Positions 10,579 to 47,021 of a stretch of DNA of 64,000 nucleotides are shown here, one piece after another (position 1 is the stretch's first letter; each line of letters begins with the position of its first letter). A program made the position numbers and the translations under genes. This DNA is from Podarcis liolepis (Eukaryota), in assembly GCA_965112155.1 (NCBI GenBank), contig OZ218100.1; one strand, written 5' to 3'. The notes under the pieces were generated by a model that did not search any database, was not told where the DNA came from, and worked only from the letters and a program-made list of their open reading frames with translations.

Positions 10579-11471
10579 CAGTGGTGCCCCGCAAGACGAA
10601 CGCCTCGCAAGATGGAAAACCCGCTAGACGAAAGGGTTTTCCGTTTTGGAGGCACTTCGCAAAACGAATTTCCCTATGGGCTTCCTTCGCAAGACGAAAG
10701 CCCATAGGGAAATCTCCGGGACAGCGGGGAAGCGCAGCGCGTCTTCCCCACTGTCCTCGGACCTCCTCCAAAGGCTGGCGGTGGGGCGGAGAGACCTCCT
10801 CCCGCCGCCAGCCTTCGGAAGGCTGCTCCGAAGCCTGGTGGCGGGAGGAGGTCTCTCTGCCCCACCGCCAGCCTTCGGAAGGCTGCTCCAAAGCCTGGCG
10901 GCGGGAGGAGGTCTGTCCGCCCCACCGCCAGCCTTCGGAAGGCTGCTCCGAAGACTGGTGGCGGGAGGAGGTCTCTCCATCCCACTGCCAGCCTTCGGAA
11001 GGCTGCTCCGAAGCCTGGCGGTGGGGCGGAGAGACCTCCTCCCGCCACCAGGCTTCGGAAGGCTCCTCCGAAGGCTGGCGGTGGGGCGGAGAGACCTTCT
11101 CCCCGCGCCAGCCTTCGGATGGCTGTCCTGAAGACTTGTGGTGGGAGGAGGGTTTTCCTTCCCACTGCCAACATTCAGAATGCTGTTCTGAATGTTGGCG
11201 GTGGGGAGGAAAAACCCTCCTCCCACCGCAAGCCCCGGGAACAGAGGAGAAGCGCTGCGCCCCTTCCCCTCTGTTCCCGTACCTGTCCTGAAGGCTTGCG
11301 GTGGGGAGAAAAGCCCTTCTCCGCACCGCCAGCCTGGCAAGCAGTTTCCATAGGAACGCATTAATTGATTTTCAATGCATTCCTATGGGAAACCGTGCTT
11401 CGCAAGACGAAAAACTCGCAAGAAGAAAAAACTTGCGGAACGAATTAATTTCGTCTTGCGAGGCACCACTG
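10579..11471. mobile_element. Tc1/mariner-pogo-type non-autonomous transposon with an internal GC-rich minisatellite
   Basis: TIRs CAGTGGTGCCCCGCAAGACGAA / TTCGTCTTGCGAGGCACCACTG; TA at both flanks. Confidence 0.9.
10770..11235. repeat. ~60-bp GC-rich tandem repeat (~8 units) inside the MITE
   Basis: Recurring ...CCGCCAGCCTTCGGAAGGCTGCTCCGAAG... with a 60-nt period; explains the overlapping low-complexity ORFs on both strands. Confidence 0.9.
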
Positions 11472-23961: not shown

Positions 23962-24075
23962 CTGCAGCATATTTATTGCACTGGCATCTGTAAGTATTTG
24001 AAGAAACCCTGTGGCAACTGCCACTGTAGCAACTATGTGGCTGGCACTCACCAATGATTTCCGAACAGTTCTTTC
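23962..24075 (-). CDS. EYS: EYS second coding exon (EGF-like repeat; equivalent to human exon 5)
   Basis: 114 nt, phase 1/1, polypyrimidine tract and AG acceptor, GTAAGG donor. Translates (G)KNCSEIIGECQPHSCYSGSCHRVSSNTYRCQCNKYAA(G), matching human EYS GKNCSEIIGQCQPHVC.... Not in the supplied ORF track. Confidence 0.93.
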
Positions 24076-24502: not shown

Positions 24503-24716
24503 AAGGCGTGTTCTCCTTCAAATGAGAGCACGTGTTGCGGTTGGGCGAATACAAGCCACCCTGCTGTTATCAGGCAGTTGAATGAGGTAGAACCCTTTAA
24601 AGGGTTAATTGAGTTACTGGGGAGTTTAGCATGTTGCCAATTAGGAAGGAAGGGCAGAGGCTATAAATACAGGTTACCCACGTTGGGGCGTCCTCTTGGC
24701 CTCTGCATCGGATCAC
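24503..24716 (+). repeat. Split direct repeat A1 (214 bp)
   Basis: Identical by eye to A2 at 30900-31113. Confidence 0.95.
24637..24700 (+). promoter_or_regulatory. Putative Pol II promoter in repeat A
   Basis: CCAAT 24637-24641, TATAAAT 24662-24668, pyrimidine-rich initiator-like CCTCTT about 30 nt downstream; duplicated in A2. Confidence 0.6.
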
Positions 24717-25608
24717 GGAGCAGATCGTCTGGAGCCTGGTTGTATTTGAGTATTTAAGAACTTTGCTTATCTGCTGCTGATTTCTTTGAGCCTTATAACC
24801 TTCTGTTCCTCCCCCTTTATTTATTTAATTTCCTTTCCACATTTTTTCCTCCCTCCTTCCGTTAATTCTCTCTTTTGGTTTAGTTTAATCTGAATTAGCA
24901 GCGGCTTTATTGGGAGCGGGAGTCCCCACCCCCCCCAGCCCGGGGGAGGCTTTCCTCCCGGCGTCGGGGAAGCGCCCGCGCTTTCGCCAGGCCGCGGCCC
25001 GCCCTCCCCCCGTCCTTAGCTCCGTAGCGCGGAGCGTCTCCGAGAGCCGCCCCCCCGCCCTCCTCGCGTCTCCCACACTTGGGCCTACCTGGAGCCGCGT
25101 CGGGCGGCTGGATTCGGGCCCACTTTTGCCGGAGGTCGTTGCCGCGTCGGCGGCGTCCCGTCCTCCGGTGCTGTGTCCTTGCGGCCGCGCGGCGGCGGCG
25201 AGGAGCGCGCTCCACCGGGGATTTCTTCAGCGGGCCCCTTTTGACCTAACAGGCCCACCCGCCTCGCGTTAGCGCGCGGGGGGGGGGCACATACAGGCCC
25301 GGTTCGCTAGCGCTGCGGCCTGGGCGCGCTCGCGGCCTGGTCGCAATTGCTAAGTCATTCCGGTTAGCTCCGCCATTTTAGGTAGCGTCTTGCCGACGGA
25401 GGCTCCCCCTGGTGGCTAGGATTGGTACTGCGCCTCAGTTGCTTTTCTTGAAGAGCTAGGCCGCACCCCCTACCCCTCGCCCCCTGCTGGTTGCTAGTAT
25501 ATTACGCTTTACTAATTGCTGTTTGGTAGTGATTGCTTTGCGTTTGGGCCTGCTGAGGCCTCCTGAGTTGGCAACAGTGCTCAGGACTGTTGTCCTGGCT
25601 TGGTTTGT

Positions 25609-25642
<34 letters not shown>
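25609..25642. repeat. (GATA)n microsatellite in the retrotransposon 5' leader
   Basis: Direct reading. Confidence 0.95.
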
Positions 25643-25820
25643 CTTCGATAGTCCGATACACCTGGCTGTTGCCTGGCCAAGAGACAGTCTTTATTCCGAG
25701 CTGCGGCCTAGATTTCACTCGAAGGCCCAACAGTGCTTTTTTGGTTGGAGGTTGCTAGCTTCATTTTGCCGTAGCGTTTGAATATTGACTTGGTTTTGAT
25801 TTTATTTCCTGCTAGCAGGT

Positions 25821-27347
25821 ATGGCTCCAAAGAAAGCTGCTGCGCGCTCCAGCTCTGTCATCGCGTCAAAGCGGCCTATTAGAGGTCCATCCCAAGCGCT
25901 TCGCTCTCCCCCCACCAACCAACCGGTGGGGCGAGTGCAATCGTTGGTAGCAGGCATGGCAGGTGACCCGGTGGCTCTATCTCGCTTCGCAGCTGACTTG
26001 GACCTTTTTCTGCAACATCGTTCTTCTCAACCATCAACATCTGGAGGGCTGCCCTCTTCAGCAGTGGTGCCGCCTCCGGCTTCATCGTCATCTAGCGAGG
26101 ATGAGGGAGAAGGACCGTCATCACAGGGTTTAATTAGGAACCCACAGTCATCCCAGTCTCCTGGCTTACCTGTAATACAGAACCGGCCTCGGAGGGCAGG
26201 CCGCCTGTCCAGGCGGGCCTCTGAAAAGAGTGCACCATTGGCTGTGTCCACTCGCCGGCGCACGCCTGCTCGGTCTCCACCGGTTGTGGCATCCGGGTCT
26301 GGTATCTCACATGTTGTCTCTATGCAGTCTGTTTCAGTTCCGTCCCAGCAGCATCCTGAATCGGAGTCCTCTGTCGAAGACAGTCTCCCGGTCCCCGCCA
26401 GGAAGTCCATGGGAGGGAAGCGTCGCCACAAGAGGGTGTCTCGAAAACGTGCAAAGCGCAGGAAGGACGACTCCTCTTCCTCTACTTCGGGTACGTCTTC
26501 CTCTAGCTCTGATGATGAGGGTACTCACTTGGAACTTTATTGGGGTTTTGGTGAATCGGCTTCAGGGCTTCCTAGGTGGGCTTGGGAACGCAGGTCCAAC
26601 GCTCATCGGGCAAAGTATGGGGCTGTTCAGGAATGCAGGGATGGTGTGTTGGTTCCCGACGTTAGAGTCTCAACCAATTCGGCCAGGGATATCATCCCAG
26701 GCTCACACTTGTCATCGAAATTGCGGTCCAGGATCTTAAATGGACGCTATGTAGACATTTTCAAATTGGCCCCGCCCTCTGAAGAGCAAGAAAAAGGAAG
26801 TGCTTCCACCAAAAAACGCTCAGGGGTTTCTGCGGCGGGTAGGTCCTTCGAACAGTGGCTCGACTGTTTTCAGGTCTTCGCCGGTATAGTCATGGCAGCT
26901 TATCCGCGTAGGTCCCTTCATTTGTTAGTTTATCTATCGATTGTGCGCTCTGCCTTTACCAAGGCGGGTGATAAAGCTGCAATTAAATACGATGAGAACT
27001 TTAGGCGCCGCGCGGCCAAGATCCCTTCTGCACGCTGGGATCGGAAAGATCTCGATGTGTGGACTACTTACGTCGCTCCGCTCATTGACAAAAAGGTACC
27101 GGAGCAGCAGAAACTGGGTGTCTCTACTTTTAGACCTGGCCGTCGATTGCCGTGTTGGGATTTTAACAGGACCTCATGTCAGCGTTCAACTTGTAGATTT
27201 GCGCACACCTGTGAGAAATGCAATGGATTGCATCCGGCTTCCTCTTGTTTTGGTGGACGGCGGCCCTTTCGTGGAGGAAAGGGGGGCTCCCAACAACCCC
27301 CCAAGTCAGTCCCCCCCACACCCTCAACCTCAGGAACAGCAAAATAA
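25821..27347 (+). CDS. gag: Ngaro Gag-like ORF1 (508 aa)
   Basis: S/P/R-rich N-terminus, basic cluster KRRHKRVSRKRAKRRK, core motifs RILNGRYVDIFKL / W..CF..F / KYDENFRR, C-terminal Cys/His finger CWDFNRTSCQRSTCRFAHTCEKCNGLHPASSC. Confidence 0.85.
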   Translation: MAPKKAAARSSSVIASKRPIRGPSQALRSPPTNQPVGRVQSLVAGMAGDPVALSRFAADLDLFLQHRSSQPSTSGGLPSSAVVPPPASSSSSEDEGEGPSSQGLIRNPQSSQSPGLPVIQNRPRRAGRLSRRASEKSAPLAVSTRRRTPARSPPVVASGSGISHVVSMQSVSVPSQQHPESESSVEDSLPVPARKSMGGKRRHKRVSRKRAKRRKDDSSSSTSGTSSSSSDDEGTHLELYWGFGESASGLPRWAWERRSNAHRAKYGAVQECRDGVLVPDVRVSTNSARDIIPGSHLSSKLRSRILNGRYVDIFKLAPPSEEQEKGSASTKKRSGVSAAGRSFEQWLDCFQVFAGIVMAAYPRRSLHLLVYLSIVRSAFTKAGDKAAIKYDENFRRRAAKIPSARWDRKDLDVWTTYVAPLIDKKVPEQQKLGVSTFRPGRRLPCWDFNRTSCQRSTCRFAHTCEKCNGLHPASSCFGGRRPFRGGKGGSQQPPKSVPPTPSTSGTAK

Positions 27348-28953
27348 GGTGCTGACTTCCTTGGCTCAGACTCCTATACGTCTGCCGGCCCTTAAAAAGT
27401 GGCTCAGGTTTTACCCAGATAGGGAGGCCGCTCGTTACCTGAGCGACGGTTTTTCTGTTGGTTTTCGGATTCCGGTAGCCAAGCCTCCCGTGGCTCGGAA
27501 TTCGTCTAATCAGAAATCAGTTCGTGAGTTGCCAGAAATTGCTCGAAGAAAGATCACAAAAGAGGTGGCTATGCACCGGATGGCTGGCCCCTTTTGTGCC
27601 CCTCCATTTCCTAAATTGCATGTTTCCCCACTGGGCATCGTGCCAAAGAAAGCCCCTGGTGAATTCCGTTTGATTCATAATTTATCACACCCTAGGGGTA
27701 CTTCAGTTAACGACGTGATTCCTCCAGAGCTTTGCTCAGTTAGGTATGCCTCTCTTGATCACGCGATCAAGATGATCCGGAAATTTGGACCAGCTGCGTT
27801 ATTGGCAAAATGCGACATAGAGTCGGCATTCCGTTTGCTGCCGATTCATCCGGAGGATTTCTGGCTGCTCGGTTTCCAGTTTGAGGGAAAATACTATTTT
27901 GACAAAGCCATGCCCATGGGCTGTTCTATAGCGTGCGCTGCTTTTGAATCTTTCAGTACCTTTTTGGAGTGGGCCCTCAAGCTGAAAACCGGGTTGGATG
28001 GGGTTACTCATTATTTGGATGATTTTTTATTGGCTTCTGATTGTAATACTGACAATTGCTCGGTTCTGTTGCAAGCTTTAGCGGCCCTTACTGAGGAATT
28101 GGGGGTCCCGTTAGCGGCAGAAAAGACTGAGGGTCCCTCGACTCAGCTCACGTATTTGGGTATCCTTTTGGATACGGTGTCTCAAACTTCTAGCTTGCCA
28201 AAGGTGAAGCTGGTGGCTTTGAAAAAGGTTATAGAGGAATTGCTTCCCTTAAAGAAAGTGTCCCTACTGCAGATCCAATCGCTGTTAGGTCACCTGAATT
28301 TTGCCTGTAGGGTGGTGGCCCCGGGCCGCCCCTTTTGCTCTCGTTTGGCTCGCCTCACGGTGGGCTTGAAGGCCCCGCATCATCGTGTTCGTCTTTCCAG
28401 GGAGGTGAGGGCTGATCTCAGCATATGGCTTGAGTTTTTGGAGGAATTCAATGGGGTATCGTTATGGCAAGACACTCTGAACTTGCAGAACGATTTTCAG
28501 GTGCACTCAGATGCTGCAGGGTCCCAGGGTTTCGGCCTATATTGGATGGGTAGGTGGTGTGCCAAGCGCTGGCCTCTTGACTGGCAGGGAACAGCCATTA
28601 CGCGGGACCTAACTTTTCTTGAGTTCTTTCCCATTGCAGTGGCAGTGCACTTGTGGGTCGAAGAGTTCAGGGACCGACGTGTCTGCTTCTGGACTGATAA
28701 CCAGGCGGTGGTGGACGTGCTGGCCAAGCTGTCGTCCCGCTCTCCTAGGGTGTCGGCCCTTTTGCGGGCTTTTGTTTTACATTGTTTACGTTATAATATA
28801 GTCTTTTCCGCTCGTTTTGTTCCGGGGGTGTCTAACGAAATTGCCGATGCTCTGTCCCGTTTTCAGATGGAGCGGTTCAGACTTCTGGTTCCAGAGGCTC
28901 GGAAACGTCCGGAATGTTTCCCGGAACATCTCTGGAGCCTTGGCAGGAGCTAG
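26941..28953 (+). CDS. pol: Reverse transcriptase-RNase H (ORF2); true start uncertain
   Basis: RT motifs FRLIHNLS, KCDIESAFR, MPMG, YLDD; RNase H SDAAG, LEFFPI, TDN, NEIADALSR; overlaps gag in the +1 frame. Confidence 0.95.
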   Translation: MCALPLPRRVIKLQLNTMRTLGAARPRSLLHAGIGKISMCGLLTSLRSLTKRYRSSRNWVSLLLDLAVDCRVGILTGPHVSVQLVDLRTPVRNAMDCIRLPLVLVDGGPFVEERGAPNNPPSQSPPHPQPQEQQNKVLTSLAQTPIRLPALKKWLRFYPDREAARYLSDGFSVGFRIPVAKPPVARNSSNQKSVRELPEIARRKITKEVAMHRMAGPFCAPPFPKLHVSPLGIVPKKAPGEFRLIHNLSHPRGTSVNDVIPPELCSVRYASLDHAIKMIRKFGPAALLAKCDIESAFRLLPIHPEDFWLLGFQFEGKYYFDKAMPMGCSIACAAFESFSTFLEWALKLKTGLDGVTHYLDDFLLASDCNTDNCSVLLQALAALTEELGVPLAAEKTEGPSTQLTYLGILLDTVSQTSSLPKVKLVALKKVIEELLPLKKVSLLQIQSLLGHLNFACRVVAPGRPFCSRLARLTVGLKAPHHRVRLSREVRADLSIWLEFLEEFNGVSLWQDTLNLQNDFQVHSDAAGSQGFGLYWMGRWCAKRWPLDWQGTAITRDLTFLEFFPIAVAVHLWVEEFRDRRVCFWTDNQAVVDVLAKLSSRSPRVSALLRAFVLHCLRYNIVFSARFVPGVSNEIADALSRFQMERFRLLVPEARKRPECFPEHLWSLGRS

Positions 28954-29837
28954 TTTTTCAGGGAGTAATGGCTTCTATTTCTCCTTCTACTCTCAGGTCA
29001 TACACTAAAGCATGGGCTGATTTTTTGTCCTTTACATATCAGTCAGCCGAGGAGCAAAGGGGGGCTTCCCCCTCTACTTCTCAGGTGCTAAGATATTTGG
29101 CGCACCTGTTTCAGTTAGGACGTGCAGCTAAGACGCTAAGAATTCAGGCAGCTGCCATTGCCTTTTTCTGCAAAGCTTATTTCGACAAAGATCCTTGCGC
29201 TAAATTTGCCGTGCGTAAGGCCCTTGAGGGATGGGGTAGGCTTTGTCCTTCCCAGCCAGCTACTAGGCACCCTATCTCATATGATTTGCTGTGCAAAATG
29301 CGCAAGGAGTTGAGGAAGGTTTGCTGGTCCAGGTATGAGGCTCGTCTTTTTTCTGCGGCCTTTTCTATTGCCTTCTTCGGAGCACTAAGGGTTGGTGAGC
29401 TCGTATGGGAGGAGCACAATAATGGCAGTTCTAGGGGATTATTGCTTCAGGATGCACAGCTATCTCCAGATGAGCTGAGGCTCCTCATTAGGAACTCAAA
29501 AACGGATCAGGACGGAAGGGGAGCCCTCATTCGTCTCCCGGCCACAAGGGAGGTGGGTCCGTGTCCGGTCAAAGATGTCAGGAGGTACTTGTCCATCCGG
29601 GCCCCGGGGGAAGGTCCACTGCTGCAGCACGAAGATGGGTCGCCTCTATCTAGGCGACAGTTTGCAAGGGTGATGCGGAAGGCCATTGCGGCTTGTGGTG
29701 ATTCTGCTAGTGATTTTGCCCCACATTCTTTCAGGATTGGGGCTGCCACGACGGCAGCGCATTGGGGCCTGTCTGCAGGCAGAATAAAGAATTTGGGTCG
29801 TTGGAAGTCGAATGCGTTTAGAGGCTATGTTCGCTAA
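28914..29837 (+). CDS. Tyrosine recombinase (phage-integrase family), 307 aa
   Basis: Catalytic set ALRVGEL (R), SKTDQ (K), HSFR (HxxR), GRW, terminal Y in FRGYVR. Confidence 0.95.
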   Translation: MFPGTSLEPWQELVFQGVMASISPSTLRSYTKAWADFLSFTYQSAEEQRGASPSTSQVLRYLAHLFQLGRAAKTLRIQAAAIAFFCKAYFDKDPCAKFAVRKALEGWGRLCPSQPATRHPISYDLLCKMRKELRKVCWSRYEARLFSAAFSIAFFGALRVGELVWEEHNNGSSRGLLLQDAQLSPDELRLLIRNSKTDQDGRGALIRLPATREVGPCPVKDVRRYLSIRAPGEGPLLQHEDGSPLSRRQFARVMRKAIAACGDSASDFAPHSFRIGAATTAAHWGLSAGRIKNLGRWKSNAFRGYVR

Positions 29838-29893
29838 CATGATGTTTTATATTTTGTTTCTCTATACCAGGTTTAGCAGCCGTACGCATATGG

Positions 29894-30445
29894 ATGGTGG
29901 GGCACAGTATCGTACATTGGGCCGGTGTTGGAGCCAGGCAGCTCAGATTGGGACCAGGTCTCGGCCTTCCTCCTCACGTGCGCGTATCTTGGCTGGCCAG
30001 AAGGGGAATGTCCTGGACTGAGTTTCTGCCACTGATTCGTAGGCAGCTAGCCGAGGAAGGGCCGCCCTCGGCCATTGTTGTGCAGTTGGGTGAGAACGAC
30101 CTGGTTTCTATGGACTGTGCTTCTTTACGTGCTGCTATCTTGGGTGATCTTGAAGTGCTGCGAGCAATGGTGCCGGCAACAAAAATTTTCTGGTCAAAAT
30201 TTTTGCAAAGGCGCAGTTGGAGAGGCAGTCGGTGCCCGACTGCCACCGAAAGGGCTAGGAAGCGGATCAATTCGGCAGTCTCAAAAAAGGTTTTTGAGTT
30301 GGGAGGTGACGTGATTTCTCATCCTGAGATTCTGGCTAGGGATGAATCTCTTTTCAGGGATGATGGGGTGCATCTTTCGGCTTTAGGGAATAAAGCGTGG
30401 CTGGGTGCTGTGGTGGCTAAGCTAAGGTCTTGGCTGGGTTCGTGA
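29894..30445 (+). CDS. SGNH/GDSL-family hydrolase (esterase) ORF; probably a spliced exon starting at 29871
   Basis: Blocks VGHS (Ser), RRG, QLGEND (Asn), DGVH (His). Confidence 0.88.
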   Translation: MVGHSIVHWAGVGARQLRLGPGLGLPPHVRVSWLARRGMSWTEFLPLIRRQLAEEGPPSAIVVQLGENDLVSMDCASLRAAILGDLEVLRAMVPATKIFWSKFLQRRSWRGSRCPTATERARKRINSAVSKKVFELGGDVISHPEILARDESLFRDDGVHLSALGNKAWLGAVVAKLRSWLGS

Positions 30446-30475
30446 GTGGTTTGGCGGCGAGCTTAAGGCTCCATA

Positions 30476-30901
30476 TGGCGGTTAGGCATTGGTTTAAAAT
30501 TGGTTGGGAGGGGTAAGTGCCTACCCCTCCAATGGTGGTGCGAAAAGGGAATTCCGTTAAAGGAATCCAGGGGCTTGCCATTCTTTCGTCCTTGTCCCCG
30601 GAGTCGGACCTGGGCCGTGCAAGCCCCACAGGAACATGAGGGTGAGAGGTGTGGGACTGTTACCCAGCCTCACCTTCTCACCCAATACTTGTTTCCCAAG
30701 CTGGCTTCCGCTGGAATCCGGAAGACCAGCCCTGTCCCTGGGCAAGGACAGATAGTCTTAACCAATGCCTAAGCAACCACTCACGTATTTGTATTTTAAT
30801 AAAGTTGTGGCCAAAAATCATGCCAAAAACCTTAAACAAAAATTAATGTGTGAAGTGTGAATTATTTTGGTGAGGGTGGCTTTGTGGGACTCAACACGCA
30901 A
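30476..30901 (+). repeat. Split direct repeat B1 (426 bp)
   Basis: Matches B2 (offset 811) with two substitutions seen: 30541 C / 31352 T and 30554 C / 31365 A. Confidence 0.95.
30798..30803 (+). terminator. Poly(A) signal in B1
   Basis: AATAAA followed by GT/T-rich downstream sequence. Confidence 0.6.
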
Positions 30902-31113
30902 GGCGTGTTCTCCTTCAAATGAGAGCACGTGTTGCGGTTGGGCGAATACAAGCCACCCTGCTGTTATCAGGCAGTTGAATGAGGTAGAACCCTTTAAAGG
31001 GTTAATTGAGTTACTGGGGAGTTTAGCATGTTGCCAATTAGGAAGGAAGGGCAGAGGCTATAAATACAGGTTACCCACGTTGGGGCGTCCTCTTGGCCTC
31101 TGCATCGGATCAC
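30900..31113 (+). repeat. Split direct repeat A2
   Basis: Identical to A1; contains CCAAT 31034-31038 and TATAAAT 31059-31065. Confidence 0.95.
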
Positions 31114-31286
31114 CCGCCCACCCTCCCTTTTAAAGGGGGGGTTTCTTGGTTATTGACCTTGCTATGCCTGTCATGGGGTCGTTCGCCTTGGTGCGGGGGC
31201 CTGGTAGGAATTTACCATTTGGCTGATTGGCTGGTGCCATTTGGGTTTCGCCTACTACGTAGCAAATAAGTCACAACTTGTAAGGT
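31114..31286 (+). ncRNA. Unique A2-B2 spacer; candidate structured RNA element
   Basis: Nested complementary segments, e.g. TTGCTATG/CGTAGCAA and TGGTAGG/CCTACTA; no meaningful ORF. Confidence 0.45.
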
Positions 31287-31712
31287 TGGCGGTTAGGCAT
31301 TGGTTTAAAATTGGTTGGGAGGGGTAAGTGCCTACCCCTCCAATGGTGGTGTGAAAAGGGAATTACGTTAAAGGAATCCAGGGGCTTGCCATTCTTTCGT
31401 CCTTGTCCCCGGAGTCGGACCTGGGCCGTGCAAGCCCCACAGGAACATGAGGGTGAGAGGTGTGGGACTGTTACCCAGCCTCACCTTCTCACCCAATACT
31501 TGTTTCCCAAGCTGGCTTCCGCTGGAATCCGGAAGACCAGCCCTGTCCCTGGGCAAGGACAGATAGTCTTAACCAATGCCTAAGCAACCACTCACGTATT
31601 TGTATTTTAATAAAGTTGTGGCCAAAAATCATGCCAAAAACCTTAAACAAAAATTAATGTGTGAAGTGTGAATTATTTTGGTGAGGGTGGCTTTGTGGGA
31701 CTCAACACGCAA
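31287..31712 (+). repeat. Split direct repeat B2 (element 3' end)
   Basis: Copy of B1; ends ...CAACACGCAA; AATAAA at 31609-31614. Confidence 0.95.
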
Positions 31713-33291: not shown

Positions 33292-33443
33292 ACCAAACCC
33301 TGGTCGGAGCCTTGTGCTCATGAATGGGCTTATAAATGGTCAAAGCATGGTCTGGCATTGTACTTGAACCAAACCCTGGTCGGAGCCTTGTGCTCATGAA
33401 TGGGCTTATAAATGGTCAAAGCATGGTCTGGCATTGTACTTGA
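33292..33443. repeat. Perfect 76-bp tandem duplication
   Basis: ACCAAACCCTGGTCGGAG...GTACTTGA occurs twice, followed by the microhomology ACAAACCC. Confidence 0.95.
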
Positions 33444-34010
33444 ACAAACCCATTGTGTCTACATTCCTCTTATTTTGTTTATTTTTGCTAAAAGTAGCCA
33501 CTCACACCCGTGGTGTATCACATTTCTATTGTTCATTAATCCATTGCTATAGTATATTTTAATACATTCTTTTTATTGTTTATTTCCAAAACAACTACGC
33601 TTCTCACATAGTTTGATTTTACGTGCATGATAGTTGATAGATAAATAGATAGATAGATAGATGAAGCATAGATTGCAAAGTAGATTGGAAACATGCCATG
33701 AGGGAAGGGGTTCTTAACCCTTTGTGCCCACTTGAGTCTTGGTCAGAATTCCCCCACCCCTATGGTTGTTGTTCACAATGAAATGAAGTCTCTCTTTGTT
33801 CTATGGGAGGTTTTTTTCTATTCTAAAGAGCCGGGAGGGGAATTCTGATTAGGACAATGACAAGAACAAAAAGTTACAGCCCTCTTCCCTTGCATCAGGA
33901 TCCCAATTTATGTGAGCTATTTAAAAAGAAAAAAAGAAATATTTCATGCAAGACCAAGTCACATGACAAATATCATGTCTAGTTAAGTCCTGAAACACAT
34001 TAGTTCTTAC

Positions 34011-34764
34011 CTGCAAACATTGGGGGGCATATACATTCATAGGACTCTGCATCAAGTTCTCCTTTCACTCCCTTTCTAACGCAGGAGGCGTTGTTGTAGC
34101 AGGGCTTACTGGAGCACACATCAAATTCTTGGCAGAATTGTCCCGAATACAACTGGTTACAGTGGCAATTGTAGGCTTCCTCCCAGATGTGACTTAAACA
34201 TATGCCCCGTCCAGAGCAAAAGGGTGCACTTCGAGACTGCTGGCAAAGATGTGGTTTCACTGTCACATTCAGCCTCAGCCCTAAATTACATAAAGGTGGC
34301 CCTCGGCTCGGGACTTCAGTGAAATAATGCGTTCCAACTCCAAGCCATTGCGGGTCGATCTGATGCATCCCACTTAACCTGCAACCAAAAATCATCTGCA
34401 GCTGAGGGATATCAGTTTGTTGAGGACACCTGATGAATTCCTCCCGGGAAACATTTGCCAAGTTCATGCCATGCGACTGAAAAGAGGGCTCGGAGGAAAC
34501 AAATAGTGCATCTCCCAACTGAAGCTGTAGAGGACAAAGCTGGGGATGACTCAAAGCTGAATGTTCTAGAGCATTCACATCGGTATTCCAGCAATCGGCG
34601 TAGAAGTTGGAACAGATGTTTTGGGTCAGGGACCACTTCACAATATGTACTGTCGGCTGCAGTTTCCATTCTGAAGTTGAAGACCTTTTGCAGGCAGTCT
34701 GCCCGTCAACAATGCAACCTTGAAAGACATGAACCATCACAACAATGATTGACTTTAGTTTCAT
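34011..34764 (-). CDS. EYS: EYS (protein eyes shut homolog) first coding exon: signal peptide, N-terminal domain and two EGF-like repeats
   Basis: Translation aligns with the human EYS N-terminus (W.LT.NIC..FY.DCW, CPLQ.QLGD.L..SSEPS, FGCRL.GMH, GTHYF, LGLRLNVTVK, FCSG.G.CLS..W, FSG/YSG..CQE.D.CS.KPC.NN); ends at the phase-1 donor G|GTAAGA. Confidence 0.96.
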
Positions 34765-43497: not shown

Positions 43498-43874
43498 ATT
43501 GTTGTTGTTTAGTCGTTTAGTCGTGTCCGACTCTTCGTGACCCCATGGATCAGAGGCACGCCAGGCACTCCTGTCTTCCACTGCCTCCTGCAGTTTGATC
43601 AGATTCATGTTTGTAGCTTCGAGAACACTATCCAACCATTTCGTCCTCTGTCGTCCCCTTCTTCTTGTGCCCTCAATCTTTCCCAACATCAGGGTCTTTT
43701 CCAGGGAGTCTTCTCTTCTCATGAGGTGGCCAAAGTATTGGAGTCTCAGCTTCAGGATCTGTCCCTCCAGTGAGCACTCAGGGCTGATTTCCTTCAGAAT
43801 GGATAGGTTTGATCTTCTTGCAGTCTATGGGACTCTCAAGAGTCTCCTCCAGCACCATAATTCAAAAGCATCAA
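43498..43874 (-). mobile_element. RTE/BovB LINE 3' fragment
   Basis: Reverse complement of the family at 19253-19648; peptide MRREDSLEKTLMLGKIEG.RRRGRQR.KW. Confidence 0.9.
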
Positions 43875-44459
43875 TATCTTCAATATTAAGACACAGCAAT
43901 AAAACTTGGCCTGCCTTTCAAGGTTTGAAAAGCCACCCTAATCAAACTGCATCTCCCCACCTACCCACCCCTTCGAGCGGGGTACAGAAAAAGCTAAAAT
44001 GCCCTTTGTGTGATCACTCAAAGTAATCAGTGTGCAGTAAAATATTGCAGGGCATTTGCTTCAGCAGGAATCACACAGAGTTGCAGCCATTGTTCTGAGG
44101 GTGCTTTAGTACCACAGGAAAGTGTTTTCCATTGAGAAAGAGGCCCACAGGGCCCTTCTCACCAGTGGGACTCAACGCTCTTCCAAGGAATGGGCCACTT
44201 CCACAGTCTCTGCCTTCCCCATGGCACAAGGTGGGCTTTGATGGGAAGGTGCTTGGGACACGTGGAGGGATGGAAGGAAATGTTTTCTGGATATTCCAAT
44301 GCCAAGCATGCAAAGCCCTTGCTAGCATGTTAGCATTTCCCAACTGGAACACTTATACAAAGGACCAGTCTTTTTGTGTGTTGGGGGGGGGGGGGGACTT
44401 TACAGAAACAGTATTTCACAATGCATATGAAATTAAACCTAGACCCTGGAAGGGCATTT

Positions 44460-46323: not shown

Positions 46324-46468
46324 GGTTAGAGTGTTGGGTTAGGACAGGGGAGACCCAGGTTCCAATAACCAATCAGCTGTGAAACTCAGCAGATGACCCA
46401 ATCACCAATCTCTCAGTCTTACCGATCTCACAGGGGTTGTGAGTATACAATGGGAGGAAAGAGCCAAG

Positions 46469-47021
46469 TCTCGCTTGGACTACTGCAATGCGCTCTACGT
46501 GGGGCTACCTTTGAAGGTGACCTGGAAACTACAGCTAATCCAGAATGCGGCAGCTAGACTGGTGACTGGGAGCAGCCGCCGAGACCATATAACACCAGTC
46601 TTGAAAGACCTACATTGGCTCCCAGTACGTTTCCGAGCACAATTCAAAGTGTTGGTGCTGACCTTTAAAGCCCTAAACGGCCTCGGTCCAGTATACCTGA
46701 AGGAGCATCTCCACCCCCATCATTCTGCCCGGACACTGAGGTCCAGCGCCGAGGGCCTTCTGGCAGTTCCCTCATTGCAAGAAGCAAAGCTACAGGGAAC
46801 CGGGCAGAGGGCCTTCTCAGTAGTGACGCCCGCCCTGTGGAATGCCCTCCTATCAGATGTCAAAGAGATAAACAACGACCTGACATTTAGAAGACATTTG
46901 AAGGCAGCCCTGTTTAGGGAAGTTTTTAATGTGTGACATTTTAATGTATTTTTGATCTTTGTTGGAAGCTGCCCGGAGTGGGTGGGGAAACCCAGCCAGA
47001 TGGGCGTGGTACAAATGAAAA

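Follow-up and report, generated by a model that had tools for sequence, protein, structure and literature searches.

An SGNH-bearing Ngaro-type retrotransposon of a lacertid lizard with a probable splicing scheme for its recombinase and esterase

A contig of the lizard Podarcis liolepis (OZ218100.1, assembly GCA_965112155.1) carries, at 24503-31712 of the stretch analysed here (64,000 nucleotides, hereafter the 64-kb window), a 7.2-kb Ngaro-type retrotransposon in the order A1-ORFs-B1-A2-173 nt-B2. Its open reading frames (ORFs) encode a Gag-like protein, a reverse transcriptase with RNase H (RT/RNase H), a tyrosine recombinase (YR) and an SGNH esterase. We consider it likely that this is an SGNH-bearing Ngaro-type element of a lacertid lizard, intact and recent, whose recombinase and esterase are produced by splicing to a shared exon encoding the N-terminal half of Gag (Gag-N).

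Structure and age of the element

The repeats and the sequences between them are arranged as follows.

24503..24716, plus strand: A1 repeat, TATA box at 24662, presumed promoter
30476..30901, plus strand: B1 repeat, 13-bp stem closing a multi-hairpin RNA domain, AATAAA at 30798
30893..30909, plus strand: B/A junction, 7-bp inverted repeat flanking a 3-nt core
30900..31113, plus strand: A2 repeat, second TATA box at 31059
31114..31286, plus strand: unique 173-nt spacer between A2 and B2
31287..31712, plus strand: B2 repeat, AATAAA at 31609

The initial annotation of this DNA had described A1 and A2 as identical and B1 and B2 as differing at two positions; the alignments agree, with 214/214 and 424/426 matching positions, respectively, and B mismatches at 30541 and 30554, one of which is a CpG-to-TpG change in B2. 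The resulting divergence of 2/638 sites, or 0.31% (95% 0.04-1.1%), bears out the proposed recent insertion and, at an assumed rate of 1-3e-9 changes per site-year, corresponds to an age of about 0.5-1.6 million years (My; bounds 0.06-5.7 My). The statement that CpG is not depleted holds in part: the element is less depleted than its flanks (observed/expected 0.70 vs 0.28 and 0.22), but it is not free of depletion, the ratio being 0.43 in B and 0.55 in A.

There is a substantial chance, if somewhat short of even, that the copy is intact but silenced or that the family is already extinct, so that only a recent fossil is seen. CpG decay accounts for one of the two B differences, no second copy was found in the 64-kb window, and the nearest database RT (best 120 of 1345 matches) reaches no more than 90% identity. 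The low repeat divergence and the intactness of all frames and cis-signals speak against a fossil.

Reading frames and predicted proteins

Four coding frames lie between A1 and B1.

25800-27347, plus strand: Gag frame, stop-free
25821..27347, plus strand: Gag-like ORF1, 508 amino acids (aa), with low-complexity N-terminal half, basic patch (26418), helical core and zinc finger (27153)
26929..28953, plus strand: RT/RNase H frame, +1 relative to Gag, without methyltransferase
28836-29837, plus strand: YR stop-free frame
29843-30445, plus strand: SGNH stop-free frame

Four uninterrupted ORFs with catalytic motifs had been reported, and the frames are indeed stop-free, with motifs located for RT, RNase H, YR and SGNH; which motif residues are catalytic is general knowledge of these enzymes. 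The same ORFs had been treated as four independent genes. This view is not upheld, as it overlooked splice and frameshift signals and as the SGNH frame is not free-standing. Pfam recognized RVT_1 in RT above the cut-off (E 2.7e-13), and Phage_integrase in YR (3e-5) and Lipase_GDSL_2 in SGNH (1e-5) below it. The RT/RNase H frame ends 28 residues past the last RNase H motif. Pfam gave no Dam match in the element, and no methyltransferase was listed for the RT matches (best 120 of 1345).

The structure model of the SGNH domain has a predicted local distance difference test score (pLDDT) of 97, and its matches of SGNH fold include the esterase of ZfL2-1 (4c1b; E 5e-7, rank 33); a sequence search of the PDB with SGNH gave no significant match. 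The label 'Gag' is supported by position and by the zinc-finger pattern, but a capsid fold was not found: the model (pLDDT 81) had no Foldseek match with E<=0.001, the best Z being 5.0 (root-mean-square deviation 4.4, 81 aligned). The core of the protein (26640-27290), in which pLDDT exceeds 90 in 125/217 residues, had no clear match among solved structures, and an Atlas search with Gag returned only unnamed eukaryotic clusters.

Predicted splicing of a shared Gag exon

The SGNH frame has no usable start, its sole early Met sitting three residues ahead of the catalytic Ser, and we therefore searched for its route of translation. The following signals emerged.

24690..25820, plus strand: putative 5' leader, GC/CpG-rich, without ATG; start site placed from the TATA box
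25821..26490, plus strand: predicted shared Gag-N exon with phase-1 donor, intron from 26491
28832..28866, plus strand: candidate YR acceptor, branch-point-like CTAAC and phase-1 AG, within RNase H coding sequence
28867..29837, plus strand: predicted YR exon, Gag-N-YR of 546 aa
29834..29870, plus strand: candidate SGNH acceptor, branch-point-like CTAAC, pyrimidine tract and phase-1 AG
29871..30445, plus strand: predicted SGNH esterase exon, Gag-N-SGNH of 414 aa

The leader of 1131 nt contains no ATG, against a mean of 9.6 and a minimum of 3 in 300 dinucleotide shuffles. CTAAC stands 31-33 nt upstream of both phase-1 acceptors, and the joins of donor to acceptor are stop-free, giving the 546 aa (YR) and 414 aa (SGNH) products. 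The shared exon contains a conserved segment near residues 17-61 and ends in the basic patch. From these signals and the comparisons below, we judge that the Gag-N exon is very probably spliced to the SGNH esterase and probably also to YR.

Gene models of relatives point to the same junctions. Among the best 150 SGNH relatives, the leader matches Gag in 5, YR in 13, RT in 1 and none of these in 131; four of the five Gag-matching leaders stop at Gag residue 222, the position of the phase-1 GT at 26491. A search with the N-terminal half of Gag gave 31 matches, comprising 17 full Gags and 14 models of Gag-N joined to SGNH, of which 13 use the predicted junction and 10 of those are 413-414 aa long, as predicted. 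The best 120 YR matches divide into 31 with a long non-RT leader, 84 that start near or after the acceptor, 4 with an RT-derived leader and 1 read-through. Fifteen of the 31 long-leader matches are labelled as isoforms, a label that normally implies transcript support, and in 10 of the 31 the residue at the projected junction is Asp; in P0320 the homologous Gag residue is joined to the predicted first YR residue. The same leader is moreover found on two enzymes, being identical at 207/207 residues in P0309 (YR, Zootoca) and P0130 (SGNH), and at 141/141 in P0361 (YR, Anolis sagrei) and P0216 (SGNH).

Nine related loci (L001-L009) provide evidence that bypasses gene models. They were found in a prokaryotic genome collection, on contigs labelled Sedimenticola, Nitrospirales, Rhodothermales, Nitrosopumilaceae and Gammaproteobacteria, two of these contigs measuring 439 and 932 kb. 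Because low coding density and simple repeats surround the loci, they are probably animal-type Ngaro elements that entered metagenome-assembled genomes by host contamination, not by transfer. SGNH is present in three of the nine (L001-L003), all of invertebrate type; RT identity to the lizard element is 44-46%. In the DNA of all three, a phase-1 CAG lies 5 nt before the same SGNH Trp codon, and CAG/AT is found at the RNase H end. In two of the three, the stretch from the upstream stop to the catalytic Ser of SGNH is devoid of Met, and in the third a Met lies three residues before this Ser. A pyrimidine tract plus CAG occurs in 10/26 short-leader SGNH matches, which are unspliced predictions, vs 99/1586 control windows.

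Two further sets of signals were rejected. An acceptor before the Gag ATG (rank 5) could suggest a leader intron, but the leader has no good GT donor and relatives have no AG at that place. The acceptors at 28961 and close to the RT start are of phase 0, unlike the donor.

Predicted +1 frameshifting into reverse transcriptase

The RT frame is shifted by +1 relative to Gag, and the two overlap in the element as well as in five of the nine loci. A candidate slip site lies within the overlap.

27264..27272, plus strand: CCC_TTT_CGT as read in Gag, candidate site of a +1 ribosomal frameshift to the RT frame

All six overlapping elements (6/6) have TTT_CGN in the Gag frame within the overlap, at a distance of 85-112 nt upstream of the RT start motif; the codon-shuffle P is 0.05-0.19 per element, and the six are related. 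The residues PFR are kept in 17/17 full Gags, PF stands at the slip site, in the +1 frame, in six named RT leaders of lacertid or gecko type, and 4/5 invertebrate-type RT frames have no Met ahead of the RT start motif. In influenza PA-X, UUU_CGN has been proven to act as a +1 site, with ~1.3% shifting (PMC3498833), and a +1 shift at this motif has been reported for amalgaviruses (PMC5052127); here and below, papers are cited for those parts of them that were covered. The lizard element shares with both the in-frame motif and the +1 overlapping frame, in its case as features of sequence only, and has CCC as the preceding codon, which in the PA-X tests reduced shifting without eliminating it (PMC3498833). 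Our literature search found no report of a UUU_CGN +1 shift in a YR retrotransposon.

Three observations count against a slip: TTT_CG is used in 17/39 Phe-Arg pairs elsewhere, the four non-overlap loci have no TTT_CGN near RT, and only 22/60 readable RT leaders fit. Because most leaders of frogs and of a second squamate group are among those that fail, the slip site would at best be clade-specific. On balance we lean slightly towards unspliced RNA being translated into Gag and, when ribosomes occasionally slip by +1 at UUU_CGU, into Gag-RT/RNase H of 1043 aa.

An appreciable minority chance belongs to the reading in which YR and SGNH are spliced as proposed and RT is made from a spliced RNA or by stop-restart. 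In P0005, RT follows directly on the same Gag residue, weak phase-1 acceptors occur in the overlap at 27133, 27169 and 27196, and TTT_CGN is missing in other clades. P0005 is, however, a single case among the 120 listed RT matches, its join deletes the conserved RT start motif, and the element has no AG at the matching place; the position of the TTT_CGN motif, by comparison, is conserved in all six overlapping elements.

Weighing of the expression scheme

Several points weigh against the splicing scheme. It rests on DNA and on automated gene models, mostly of related Podarcis copies, and the same annotation pipelines make odd joins, with 13 SGNH-YR fusions and 1 SGNH-RT fusion among the best 150 SGNH relatives. 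Our splice-site score, a crude, hand-made one built on generic site frequencies, ranked the donor only 7th of 341 GT sites, the SGNH acceptor 4th and the YR acceptor 8th of 366 AG sites, and it placed two higher-scoring acceptors inside YR. The CAG of the YR acceptor is also a Gln codon conserved in 105 of the best 120 RT matches and, as CAG makes up 43/72 Gln codons, its presence at the YR acceptor in 4/4 elements is weak evidence alone.

Separate translation of YR, SGNH and RT through internal promoters, internal entry or reinitiation, with the Gag fusions as annotation artefacts, is improbable in our view. YR has its own in-frame ATGs at 28914 and 28968, at or downstream of which 84/120 listed YR matches begin; P0001 has Met where the element has GTG directly after the Gag stop, P0002 begins at a Met corresponding to 27223, and spurious joins do occur in gene models. 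Separate translation would leave SGNH without a usable start both in the element and in L001-L003; identical leaders, moreover, are found on two enzymes in two lizard families, and the acceptor position is kept in DNA distant from lizards. We regard the support for the scheme of splicing and slip as good for the esterase, fairly good for the recombinase and moderate for RT; that splicing and slip both operate is close to an even proposition, falling just below it.

Expression model and its implications

In the proposed model, RNA would start from the A1 promoter and all proteins would be made from one start codon. The single Gag donor would be alternatively spliced to either acceptor, giving a Gag-N-recombinase (546 aa) or a Gag-N-esterase (414 aa), while unspliced RNA would yield Gag (508 aa) and, via the +1 slip, Gag-RT/RNase H. 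Every enzyme would then carry the Gag N-terminus, and Gag-N is predicted to serve YR and the esterase as an assembly and nuclear-targeting tag, no protease being involved.

Foamy virus pol is expressed by splicing. Ty1/Copia retroelements also use splicing for gene expression (PMC5580714). In both systems spliced subgenomic RNAs set the ratio of enzyme to Gag, as would be the case here; unlike in either, one and the same Gag exon would be joined in frame to either of two different downstream enzymes, with no protease. ORF1p of ZfL2-1 (PMC3905857; PDB 4c1b) resembles the predicted Gag-N-SGNH in that an SGNH esterase is joined to N-terminal basic and helical segments, and differs in being a single ORF, whereas the lizard fusion would arise by splicing. 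This ORF1p esterase of non-LTR (long terminal repeat) retrotransposons binds phospholipids (PMC3905857). No special kinship to ZfL2-1 follows from the structure search, as bacterial SGNH enzymes score as well as or better than 4c1b at rank 33.

YR retrotransposons are abundant in fish, amphibians and squamates, and the literature covered gives no account of how the downstream ORFs are translated, of the role of the hydrolase or of the primer for RT; the present element supplies precise positions at which each of these can be addressed. The literature search found no mention of splicing or frameshifting for Ngaro elements, including in PMC9341512, PMC4350176, PMC9940879 and PMC5633606, where coverage was partial and an earlier mention is possible. 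If the scheme is true, the proteins actually made are Gag-tagged fusions, so that YR and the esterase would have to be expressed and assayed in another form, and many squamate 'uncharacterized LOC' genes are transposon splice products. In the most far-reaching reading, taken up below and unlikely, SGNH-type Ngaro elements from invertebrates to lizards would use an undescribed retroelement strategy.

Family membership and relatives

The Ngaro-type architecture put forward initially is confirmed: Gag, RT/RNase H and YR lie on one strand, the repeats are direct and split as A1-ORFs-B1-A2-B2, and there is no methyltransferase. The internal repeat pair is positioned downstream of YR, as in the Ngaro superfamily, and is preceded by a fourth ORF with an SGNH hydrolase after YR, as in the SGNH-bearing subtype; inverted terminal repeats, a DIRS1-like trait, are not present, the terminal repeats being direct. 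These defining traits are described in PMC4157794, PMC3783388, PMC3266345, PMC6681497 and PMC8547959.

Lizard origin, also claimed at the outset, is well founded. The RT search returned 1345 relatives, of which the best 120 were examined: Podarcis muralis (85-90% identity) and Zootoca vivipara come first, followed by other squamates and amphibians, with Xenopus RTs at 49-51% identity. A tree built by a quick method from 49 RT rows (39 named matches, the 9 loci and the window itself, with labelled references for Ngaro, PAT or DIRS absent) places the element in a lacertid-only group of 9 rows within a squamate group of 25. Because related RT models occur in at least eight named squamate species among these 120 matches, an intact Ngaro copy in an amniote is not surprising.

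The element is new as a member of an SGNH-bearing Ngaro kind already known from frogs. It shares with DIRS-53_XT and DIRS-54_XT of Xenopus (PMC9210276) the repeat arrangement, the order Gag, RT/RH, YR, SGNH, the absence of a methyltransferase and the near-identity of repeats in young copies, and it differs in the length of B, which is 426 nt in the lacertid element vs 152 nt in the Xenopus families. In the parts of PMC9210276 covered, the ORFs are listed separately, the hydrolase is given no proven function and neither splicing nor frameshifting is mentioned. It is very improbable that the element is instead PAT-like with a lost methyltransferase: PAT elements do share split direct repeats, one methyltransferase loss is reported in nematodes (PMC4157794) and the RT tree has no labelled references, but no methyltransferase domain occurs among the best 120 of 1345 RT matches, from lizards to invertebrates, and the four-ORF SGNH layout equals that of Xenopus families grouped with Ngaro (PMC9210276).

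Dozens of squamate RefSeq models named 'uncharacterized LOC' or 'xerD homolog' are Ngaro proteins annotated as host genes.

Junctions, RNA folds and priming

B1 and A2 overlap by AA, the only sequence that the left, internal and right junctions have in common. No target-site duplication is thus seen at the element ends, and the short AA core is the one predicted for a circle junction, as in the DIRS order. Under the published DIRS-order model, YR would insert a circular form through exchange at this AA and leave no target duplication. The start of A1 and the end of B2 would be missing from genomic RNA, and both would be restored from the B1-A2 junction as template, following a model cited in PMC6681497. 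The junction palindrome was rejected as a general YR site, being absent in L007 and equalled in 17/445 bins, and is a weak lead only. The short A2-B2 spacer is also present in L007; as an equivalent of the internal complementary region (ICR) it was discarded, as it has no complement >=11 nt elsewhere in the element and its fold is not significant (z -1.6).

The predicted RNA fold of B is a multi-hairpin domain (z -4.9 and -4.2). Its 13-bp stem (30482-30494 with 30760-30772) starts 6 nt inside the left edge and was equalled in 0/292 control windows. B stems of 14 bp in L001 (3/298 control windows) and 17 bp in L003 (1/255) lie 16-19 nt inside the B edge, are extendable to it and show two compensated positions between them, while the sequence between their arms has diverged. 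Because B1 and B2 match to the first base, DNA synthesis probably starts or stops at the first base of B. Folding-back of the RNA 3' region through the stem at the left edge of B2 might prime minus-strand DNA, a role that we prefer for the stem but hold to be less likely than not; packaging or 3'-end control are alternatives. The priming role is weakened by L007, whose 8-bp stem is not significant (20/301), by L005, which has no stem by the strict test, and by an AATAAA ~27 nt beyond the stem, from which the primer end would need trimming. That splicing, slip and self-priming by a conserved stem, the base of which would set the left edge of B, all hold together from invertebrates to lizards, with none of them in print, is unlikely.

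DIRS-1 of Dictyostelium (PMC7192593) is likewise a YR retrotransposon with internal copies of its ends, and its 3' hairpin has been proposed as a primer, the B stem being the comparable candidate here. DIRS-1 has inverted repeats, an ICR and a methyltransferase, in contrast to the direct split repeats and the esterase of the lizard element (PMC7192593). Rfam gave four matches on the element, all far under gathering scores, and no known ribozyme or RNA family; no tRNA gene was found in the 64-kb window.

In the B1 context only, the stem can gain 11 bp (30441-30451 with 30775-30785) across the SGNH stop codon, an extension that might affect the choice of poly(A) site between B1 and B2. The A2 TATA box and B2 AATAAA could delimit a separate structured non-coding RNA of ~550 nt (31059-31640; z -4.2). 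A perfect 16-bp palindrome lies in A at 24591-24606, and a similar hairpin opens the spacer at 31121-31141.

Genomic setting

The element lies in an intron of a minus-strand gene.

34011..34764, minus strand: EYS-like host gene, first coding exon
23962..24075, minus strand: following host exon of 114 nt, EGF-like and in phase with the one above

The insertion had been placed in an EYS intron. An intron between EGF-type exons is confirmed, but Pfam and Atlas searches with the host exons indicate a chordate EGF-repeat protein and nothing narrower, so that EYS is the name we presume for the host gene. The element is antisense to this gene, 427 nt from the downstream host acceptor, and eleven AATAAA/ATTAAA hexamers lie on the host-gene strand of 24503-31712; hexamers and acceptor distance could together affect host transcripts. 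The same intron contains a near-perfect 76-bp tandem duplication at 33292-33451. Elsewhere in the window, segments at 46397-46936 and 43541-44026 are presumably L2-like and RTE/BovB-like LINE-end fragments, Pfam giving no support for the first. A GC-rich 60-bp minisatellite of 5.8 copies at 10796-11234 is the source of several spurious ORFs.

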